A program made the translations under genes and the position numbers. Shown piece after piece: positions 7,546-50,710 of a DNA stretch of 64,000 bases. The notes beneath the pieces are model-generated. The model made no database searches. It saw only the letters and a program-made list of their open reading frames with translations, and was not told the DNA's origin. The first letter of the stretch is position 1, and every line of letters begins with the position of its first letter. Source of the DNA: Eledone cirrhosa (lineage: Eukaryota); the NCBI GenBank assembly GCA_964016885.1, contig OZ024740.1, forward strand, positions 401,016,001 through 401,080,000, given 5' to 3'.

Positions 7546-7603
<58 letters not shown>

Positions 7604-7761
7604 TTGGTGCACTAAAATAGCTATATATATATGAATGTATATATAGTGTATTTTGCAATACACTGTATGCTTAATTAAAAGCATTTCGAAGACCTTATGC
7701 TATTGTTTTAGAGTAGTGACAGACTCACTTACTTTAATTTTCAGCAAGTAGGGGGAGATAA

Positions 7762-7806
7762 AGCTGACAAGGCCTTGTTTCGCATTTATTGATGCTTATC
7801 AAACCC
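7762..7806 (-). ncRNA. Hammerhead with U3-A8 core (family C, copy 1)
   Basis: Minus strand TTGATAA-gcat caataa atgc-GAAA-caaggccttg-TC-agc; stem I has one mismatch. Confidence 0.7.
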
Positions 7807-8237
7807 AACTACCCCTCCTCTTTGCTGAAATCATGGATGTTTGGTTCTTATAGAATTCTAGTAAATAATCAGGAACTGATTATACAGAGCGGTTGCTGGT
7901 CAAGCAGAAATTGAAAATTAGAATTGGTGCTCTGAAATTGCTATATATATATGAATGTATATATAGTGTATTTTGCAATACACTGTATGCTTAATTAAAA
8001 ACATTTCGAAGACCTTATGCTATTGTTTTAGAGTAGTGACAGACTCACTTACTTTAATTTTCAGCAAGCAGGGGGAGATAAAGCTGACATTCATATATAT
8101 ATAGCTATTTAAGAGCTCCAATTCTAATTTTCAATTGCTGCTTGACCGGCTACAGCTCTGTATAATCAGTTCCTGATTATTTACTAGAATTCTATAAAAC
8201 CAAACATCCATGATTTCAGCAAACATGAGGGGTAGTT

Positions 8238-8283
8238 GGCTTTGATAAGCATCAATAAATGTGAAACAAGATCTTGTCAGCTT
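8238..8283 (+). ncRNA. Hammerhead with U3-A8 core (family C, inverted copy)
   Basis: ggct-TTGATAA-gcat caataa atgt-GAAA-caagatcttg-TC-agct. Confidence 0.75.
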
Positions 8284-8408
8284 TATCTCCCCCTGCTTGC
8301 TGAAAATTAAAGTAAGTGAGTCTGGCACTACTCTAAAACAATAGCATAATGTCTTCGAAATGCTTTTAATTAAGCAACAGTGTATTGCAAATTACACTAT
8401 ATATACAT

Positions 8409-8442
<34 letters not shown>

Positions 8443-8444
<2 letters not shown>

Positions 8445-8637
8445 CAAAGGAATTGTGGTAAGGAACCAAATGGACCATAACGCACCAGAGGACTCAATAC
8501 TTAGGGTAGTAGAGTAGGAAATAGGAAAAAGTATGACCCCGACGACAGAGCTCAAGCCGTTTCGACGGCTATTTCTGGACAGAAATAGCCGTCGAAACGG
8601 CTTGAGCTCTGCCGTCGGGGTCATACTGTTTCCTACA
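8443..8637. mobile_element. Fold-back element family D, copy 1
   Basis: Near-perfect palindrome centred ~8578 plus ~80-nt tail; contains HHR 3' half GAAA-cggc-ttgagctct-gccg-TC; four more copies in the window. Confidence 0.8.
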
Positions 8638-12646: not shown

Positions 12647-12936
12647 GAATAATAAATAAGCAAGTTTGTTTTGAAGCAGCGAGCGTGTTTGAAAATAAAA
12701 ATAGAAGCTTTCGTCGTATTTTTGACTAAATATAATTTAGCCTGATAGTGGGGTTCTGAGTAATGTGTTGGTGTAATGGTAGCACAGTGGCTTGATAACC
12801 AAAGATGTGGGTTCGACTCCCATGTATGTCAATACTCATCCTTTTCCATTTGTTAGAGGGTTCTAAACCCCACTATCAGGCTAACATTTCTTTAGTCAAA
12901 AATACGGCGAAAAGCTTCTACTTCTATTTTAATAAT

Positions 12937-48003: not shown

Positions 48004-48187
48004 AAGGAAGGAAATGTGGTAAGGAACCAGGTGGACTATAACGTACCAAAGTACTCAATACATAGGGTAGTAGAGTGGGTAATAGGAACCAGTAAGACCC
48101 CGACGGCTGAGCTCAAGCCGTTTCGACGGCTAATTCAGAATTAGCTGTCGAAACGGCTTGAGCTCAGCCGTCGGGGTCTTACTGGTT

Positions 48188-49396: not shown

Positions 49397-49586
49397 GAAA
49401 ATGTTTGACCCCGACGGCAGAGCTCAAGCCGATTCGACAGCTATTTCTGAGTCCAGAAATAGCCGTCAAAACGGCTTGAGCTCTGCCGTGGGGTCAAACA
49501 TTTCCTATTACCCACTCTACTACCCTAAGTATTGAGTACTCTGGTGCGTTATGGTCCACCTGGTTCCTTACCACACATCCTTCGTT
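49395..49586. mobile_element. Family D copy 4
   Basis: Palindrome centred ~49451 plus right-hand tail. Confidence 0.8.
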
Positions 49587-50379: not shown

Positions 50380-50710
50380 TGGTGTTCTGAAATAGCGATG
50401 TATATATGAATGTATGTAGAGTATATTTGATAATTGTTTTTACTTTTGGCACAAATTATTCCAGTGTATTACTGGTACTTTATTTTATCGACCCCGTAAG
50501 GATGAAAGGCAAAGTTAACCACGGCGAGATGTGAACTCAGACCATACATGGCATAACTCTATGCTGCAAAGCATAGTGTCCGACCCTCTGCCGATACTGC
50601 CAATCCACCGCCCTTTGGTAATATACTGTATGTTTAATTAAAAACATTTTGAAGACGATTCGCTATTAATTTTAAAGTAGTGACTATGTCATTTACTTAT
50701 ACATTATCCT
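50380..50710. mobile_element. Old family C fragment interrupted by a SINE family 1 copy (50430-50613, minus)
   Basis: Flanks align to ~7607-7735. Confidence 0.65.

Follow-up and report, generated by a model that had tools for sequence, protein, structure and literature searches.

A high-copy non-LTR retrozyme of Eledone cirrhosa that probably inserts by Penelope-like priming of both strands of a (TA)n target

Penelope-like elements (PLEs) have been proposed as the mobilising partners of metazoan non-LTR retrozymes from co-occurrence and repeat homology, and the available text of the reports leaves the mechanism open (PMC7229834; 10.64898/2026.07.22.740005). A PLE protein was found to cut and extend both strands of AT-rich DNA in vitro, with two internal start sites defining the tail; in the accessible portion of that study no RNA reads ended at the hammerhead cut, and cleavage was unnecessary in vitro (PMC11167929). 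The minimal hammerheads of Schistosoma PLEs, in the sections available to us, have the U3-A8 core covariation that is also seen here, and PLE hammerhead pairs lie on opposite strands, 100-700 bp apart (PMC4209133). Our analysis of one locus and its family suggests, with a probability of about 0.75, that the locus is an insertion of a high-copy 320-nt non-LTR retrozyme made by a Penelope-like enzyme priming both (TA)n strands, and that the junction between its two arms is an ordinary truncation.

The insertion and its predicted hammerhead

The window is the whole stretch of 64,000 nt that was analysed. It holds a two-armed insertion, in which a 493-nt arm and a 337-nt inverted arm stand head to head between two (TA)n runs (Table 1). 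Positions are numbered from the predicted hammerhead cut: position 1 is the first base 3' of it (window 8085, minus strand) and position 320 is C17 of the next hammerhead. The direct repeat 7597-7769/7917-8089 has a spacing of exactly 320 nt and 97% identity (5 differences in 173 nt). The inverted arm spans 8087 to ~8421, one whole monomer with ~15 nt added, has 94% identity with the direct arm and merges at its 3' end into the right (TA)n. The hammerhead is on the minus strand in the direct arm and on the plus strand in the inverted one, and a private change at 7804 disrupts one stem I pair of the former. These alignments bear out the description in the earlier note of about 1.5 tandem monomers of period 320 followed by a complete inverted monomer. 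The stronger signal, overlooked in the same note, is that the two outer ends are both fixed sites of priming within (TA)n. It also placed an older interrupted copy at 50380-50710; the copy is there, with matches at 50380-50428 and 50614-50698, and it ends at 50698. The piece between the two matches has 14 BLAST matches within the window and is thus a repeat.

Table 1. Features of the retrozyme locus and of the older copy in the window
Feature	Window coordinates	Strand	Details
Left (TA)n target run	7546..7597	.	From sequence; target-site duplication unreadable
Long arm, 493 nt, 1.5 monomers	7597..8089	-	RNA-sense 3' end at 7597, 169 nt past a cut (longer fixed start site)
25-nt tail, at one outer end only	7597..7621	-	Positions 145-169 after the cut
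Complete type I hammerhead	7762..7806	-	U3-A8 core 7802-7796; predicted cut between 7766 and 7765; read through uncut
Remnant of second hammerhead	8082..8089	-	Stem I 3' strand (8085-8082), C17 (8086) and three bases common to the inverted arm
Head-to-head junction, 3-nt microhomology	8087..8089	.	ACA fits both arms
Short-start arm, ~337 nt, monomer plus ~15 nt	8087..8421	+	3' end in internal AT run, 144 nt past the cut
Complete type I hammerhead, inverted arm	8238..8282	+	Core 8242-8248; predicted cut between 8278 and 8279; read through uncut
Right (TA)n target run	8412..8443	.	From sequence
Older partial copy, positions 32-161 after the cut	50380..50698	-	80-88% identity; split by another repeat

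The monomer folds into a type I hammerhead. Stem I has 4 bp and continues into a long, interrupted helix, stem II has 4 bp, and stem III extends ~4 bp past the core pair and shows compensatory changes. Over 76 copies 93.7% of the cells are paired and 9 of the 14 pairs have two-sided changes, covariation counts that are inflated by kinship among the copies. None of 500 shuffled controls reaches the observed pairing, and slid structures drop to 16-44%. The underlying alignment comprises 75 of the 90 extracted loci plus one further old copy (L174); three of its 76 rows are misaligned and were retained. In stems II and III it is whole base pairs that change from one subfamily to another. At the core, 65 of the 76 rows have U3-A8 and six have C3-G8, the latter being more divergent copies. 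Rfam gives no hammerhead at the gathering score, and weak HH9 matches at 7734-7816 (minus strand) and 8225-8300 (plus strand) with E values of 0.17 and 0.36, respectively. Left unconstrained, the hammerhead region takes up a fold that is 3-7 kcal/mol more stable than the one obtained when the core is kept open. We regard the hammerhead as predicted to be active, and with ~4 bp of helix III past the core pair it could work as a monomer.

The extra copy in this alignment (L174:2210-2871) is old and has a canonical C3-G8 core. It lies within the TA run that borders a PLE at its 3' end, and this PLE has a U3-A8 core and a stem II similar to the ones in the youngest retrozyme subfamily, by exchange or convergence. 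A second, unrelated two-armed (TA)n element also occurs in the window, at 8444-8635, 19102, 48133-48141, 49444-49459 and 63401. Its read depth is several-fold above that of the retrozyme, and its arms have a near-fixed start with ends ~54 or 134 nt later (38 arm rows), so that the heads are palindromic and the tail is 80 nt long; it shows no hammerhead core. At 12762-12831 there is a tRNA-like Rfam match (34.6 bits), possibly a SINE head.

The retrozyme family and a candidate Penelope-like partner

Across the 3.0-Gb genome there are 3,374 exact matches to a 25-mer of the monomer, in line with the dispersed retrozyme-like family that had been proposed from the window. Going through the matches in contig order, we sampled every place of the first 100, and added the 40 best-scoring regions; duplicate and array loci were skipped in the analyses of this sample. 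The position-ordered set contains 116 arms in 67 locus records. In this set 54 of the 116 arms end near position 144 and 50 near position 169. Head-to-head pairs make up 36 of the 67 locus records, and 30 of these 36 join a 144 end with a 169 end. An AT repeat follows 88 of the 104 fixed outer ends. Arms have a median length of 281 nt; 39 of 104 are longer than 340 nt and extend into a further monomer. Among 61 joints, microhomology is 0-4 nt in 48 (3 nt in seven) and longer in two, and 11 have inserted bases.

The monomer is non-coding and its 320 nt fall within the 150-450 nt expected of retrozymes; every unit has a type I hammerhead, and the dispersed copies range from monomers to multimers. 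As in PLE-type insertions, there is an inverted truncated head-to-head copy, a tail at one end and a microsatellite or AT-rich target. Both insertion ends lie within (TA)n, where a target-site duplication is unreadable. The ORF with reverse transcriptase (RT) and GIY-YIG domains that marks an autonomous PLE is missing from this non-coding element and such ORFs are located elsewhere in the genome. By sequence criteria the element forms a new non-LTR retrozyme family, which would insert like a PLE. One array of 27 full monomers (G000:C14:23499023-23508240; L021-L030, L129, L130) is framed by two-arm ends. Identical monomers repeat in it at higher-order periods, and hence it expanded after insertion.

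The genome has 10,597 GIY-YIG candidates, and both RT and GIY-YIG were found in seven of the ten long ORFs scanned. Six loci (L203, L204, L208, L211, L212 and L214) belong to one PLE family with RT and GIY-YIG and 91-98% identity between copies. This family has a minimal U3-A8 hammerhead, head-to-head pairs and two kinds of 3' ends, a short one ~76 nt and a long one ~142 nt past the hammerhead, and its last 7 nt before (AT)n are identical to those of the retrozyme long end. BLAST found no homology between the monomer and the 3' repeats of the PLEs at 50 GIY-YIG loci of the 10,597 candidates. We consider this PLE family a candidate only for the mobilising partner.

The copies could also be read as 3' stubs of the terminal repeat of an autonomous PLE, and not as a retrozyme that moves independently. 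Their architecture does match that of PLE stubs in the same genome; however, the 39 arms extending into a further monomer and the array with 27 full ones make this reading improbable. In addition, tblastn with the PLE protein gives a match in only 7 of 172 locus records, with none at the 5' end of any arm, and the sole match adjoining an arm lies past its 3' end. In that record (L113:2-973) the arm's 3' end adjoins truncated PLE coding sequence on the same strand, through co-integration or later insertion. Still less credible is that the inversion arose in assembly or through a fold-back rearrangement of the DNA. No read or contig from four runs spans the locus and reads pile up family-wide, but the arms are ~6% different and dozens of loci have this same pair of fixed ends.

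Our preferred reading is that a Penelope-like enzyme would nick both strands of the (TA)n target and start one cDNA at each of two internal RNA sites, 144 and 169 nt past the cut, after which the two truncated cDNAs would be joined by 0-4 nt of microhomology. The template would mostly be uncut at the ribozyme, i.e. a circle or a multimer, and the ~2-3% of arms reaching the hammerhead that stop exactly at the cut likely do so because that RNA had self-cleaved.

Origin of the arms and their 5' ends at the predicted cut

The two arms of one insertion share 21% of their rare variants, against 1.6% for cross pairs (<10% divergence), and their divergence is 3.3% versus 5.6% for cross pairs. The arms would thus have a common sequence source or have been homogenised later, and gene conversion could partly explain the common variants. 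The earlier note had proposed that a single RT switched strands at the junction. Among the 43 pairs that combine both kinds of end, copying of the long-start arm fits 22, copying of the short-start arm fits six and neither fits 15; in these 15 each arm has template that is missing from the other, and they still share 16% of their rare variants. Since fold-back in either direction fails for these 15, a strand switch by a single RT does not serve as the general mechanism. Two priming events on one RNA species would account for all three pair classes and fit better, fold-back accounting for at most 28 of the 43. Some copies do have perfectly symmetric joints, and snap-back occurs there. The pair in the window belongs to the 22 that fit copying of the long arm, a class that both models allow.

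For the window copy itself, the earlier note described exactly where the direct arm stops (8086-8089, i.e. C17 plus 3 nt of microhomology), and its claim that this junction coincides with the cut does not hold, since the arm ends 1-4 nt upstream of the predicted cut between 8086 and 8085. The G at 8086 is the complement of C17 and fits the direct arm only. The arm therefore keeps a base that is missing from the 3' cleavage product, which speaks against the self-cleaved 5' end proposed for this copy. It is unlikely that self-cleavage made the RNA 5' end here and that the inverted arm was then copied by one RT folding back. In favour of it, only 1-4 nt separate the junction from the cut, the 337-nt arm fits within the 493-nt arm, the two have two rare variants in common, and five other loci have perfect snap-backs at the cut. 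However, C17 stays on the 5' product, so this route needs an added G and three matching bases; the joint is asymmetric, with the other arm starting at position 128; 15 of the 43 family pairs cannot arise in this way; and mismatches number 17 in 291 sites between the arms and 5 in 143 between monomers, although this difference is not significant (P 0.36). At position 317, where the window arm ends, none of the 44 rows of the equal-detection tally given below stops. With two junction ends, one would come to lie within 4 nt of the cut by chance in 2.5-5% of cases, and hence a single junction proves little. The most likely origin of the window junction is an ordinary truncation, 1-4 nt away from the cut and joined by the 3-nt microhomology.

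The 5' ends were also tabulated across the genome relative to the cut, as had been suggested for the window copy. The anchor just downstream of the cut is matched by 1,780 arms. Our first design counted arms with three foreign bases directly 5' of position 1. It gave 31 rows, which reduce to 26 arms at 21 loci of the 1,780, compared with 7 of 3,374 at position 96 (odds ratio 7, ~4 once detection rates are corrected). Five of the 31 rows were dropped, i.e. three internal deletions (L143, L145, L146), one 2-nt duplication at the cut (L136) and one complex case (L149), and two same-strand skips ending at the cut (L138, L139) were retained among the 26; two of the nine control rows at position 96 were dropped as indels.

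The second design has equal detection at all positions. Here 14 arms (12 loci) of the 1,780 end at position 1, compared with 25 ends over the ten positions upstream and 32 ends over 12 positions in a control window matched by 1,903 arms, the upstream and control positions together giving ~2.5 ends per base. The tally of position 1 and the ten positions upstream excludes three deletions, one read-through variant and one duplicate of 44 rows, and three of the 35 control-window rows were dropped as deletions; all end tallies were made by hand from the listed rows. The Poisson P for the excess at the cut is 1e-5 with 12 loci and 1e-3 with the nine that remain when palindromic ones are dropped. The stop rate is 2-3% at the cut versus 0.4% per base, a roughly fivefold excess, and most arms read through. 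The footprint of in vivo cleavage that the earlier note saw in the window copy is not supported there, and would lie in the modest excess of family 5' ends at the exact cut.

The four positions directly upstream of the cut have 5, 3, 2 and 0 ends. Downstream, among the 100 listed of 243 matches, which are mostly read-through length variants, positions 2-10 have 15 ends over 9 nt against six at the cut (P 0.007), or against four without the same-strand skips (P 0.09). The profile shows a peak at the cut with a shoulder 3' of it, and a few bases upstream the ends are back at the background level. Such a profile is expected if run-off occurs at a cleaved end that is slightly trimmed; the shoulder could also come from a pause at the stem I hairpin.

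The whole excess might instead arise without cleavage, if the RT paused at the stem I hairpin and snapped back on the four-base palindrome directly 3' of the cut. We find this possible but doubtful. The downstream shoulder among the 100 listed of 243 matches is what pausing would leave, 5 of the 21 loci ending at the cut are perfect snap-backs, and symmetric joints occur at other positions too. On the other hand, a control 4-nt palindrome has three ends and no symmetric joint in 35 rows, the excess persists when the palindromic loci are removed, and the background rate is regained within a few bases upstream of the cut. The genomic 5' ends probably hold an indirect, family-level trace of hammerhead cleavage.

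Most arms pass the hammerhead without indels, in agreement with the in vitro result, in the text available, that uncut RNA is the main substrate (PMC11167929). For seven of the 26 arms it is only on the second pass that the cut ends the copy, which we take to fit partly cut multimers better than a pure circle. The comparison of circle and multimer by divergence gives 3.9% between neighbouring monomers and 4.1% between same-register arms (P 0.63), and rare variants are in common at 3 of 105 and 15 of 195, respectively (P 0.13). Template jumping between cut monomers is disfavoured by ~154 read-through passes with no excess of indels at the cut. Three same-strand skips (L138, L139, L149) have their downstream breakpoint exactly at the cut and are possible template jumps from a cleaved end. 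At one locus (L151/L152) both arms stop exactly at the predicted cut and are joined by a ~30-nt A/T homopolymer. Most of the apparent 5' ends at positions 304-307 turned out to be places where the alignment broke off in older subfamilies whose stem II differs, and profile alignment shifted all of them except two (L018 at 306 and L049 at 307).

With about even chances in our judgement, these copies record the germ-line life cycle of a retrozyme, in which a PLE enzyme would copy the same circular or multimeric RNA twice, using two fixed starts and both strands of the DNA, and the 2-3% of stops at the cut would give the frequency with which the ribozyme fires. If this is true, they would provide direct sequence evidence that PLEs mobilise retrozymes and that U3-A8 hammerheads cut in vivo. 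The single locus is ordinary, and the value lies in the family statistics: thousands of insertions have the two-start signature of PLEs on a true tandem retrozyme and a measurable minority stop at the cut. The family makes it possible to test the nature of the template and whether the hammerhead fires in vivo.

Comparison with known systems

A literature search of the main texts of openly accessible papers returned no report of two-armed retrozyme insertions or of 5' ends at a hammerhead cut. Like the metazoan non-LTR retrozymes in the available text of PMC7229834 and 10.64898/2026.07.22.740005, the family has a ~300-nt non-coding tandem monomer of low GC with one type I hammerhead per unit, and occurs as dispersed copies and arrays. 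Different from those elements, as far as that text describes them, are the U3-A8 core in most copies, the two-armed insertions, the two fixed starts and the 5' ends at the cut. Circular RNA was shown for the described retrozymes, whereas the family here is known from genomic sequence alone.

The insertions resemble those of endonuclease-bearing PLEs, in the portions of PMC3846280 and PMC8557442 accessible to us, in the head-to-head inverted truncated copy, the tail at one end, the microsatellite or AT-rich target and the palindromic or microhomology joints; as in the available part of PMC11167929, two start sites define the tail. They differ from the PLE insertions described there in having no ORF, a tail of 25 nt versus 30-40 nt, and arms that span several monomers. 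In contrast to PMC11167929, within the text available, a minority of the retrozyme copies stop at the cut. The retrozyme hammerhead also differs from the minimal hammerheads of PLEs in the sections seen of PMC4209133, its helix III reaching ~4 bp past the core pair with compensatory changes. In the accessible text of PMC3774820 the ribozyme cut site of R2 marks genomic 5' junctions, as it does here; R2 is, however, a site-specific autonomous element with an HDV-like ribozyme, whereas in the present family the mark is that of a hammerhead and is found in only 2-3% of the arms.
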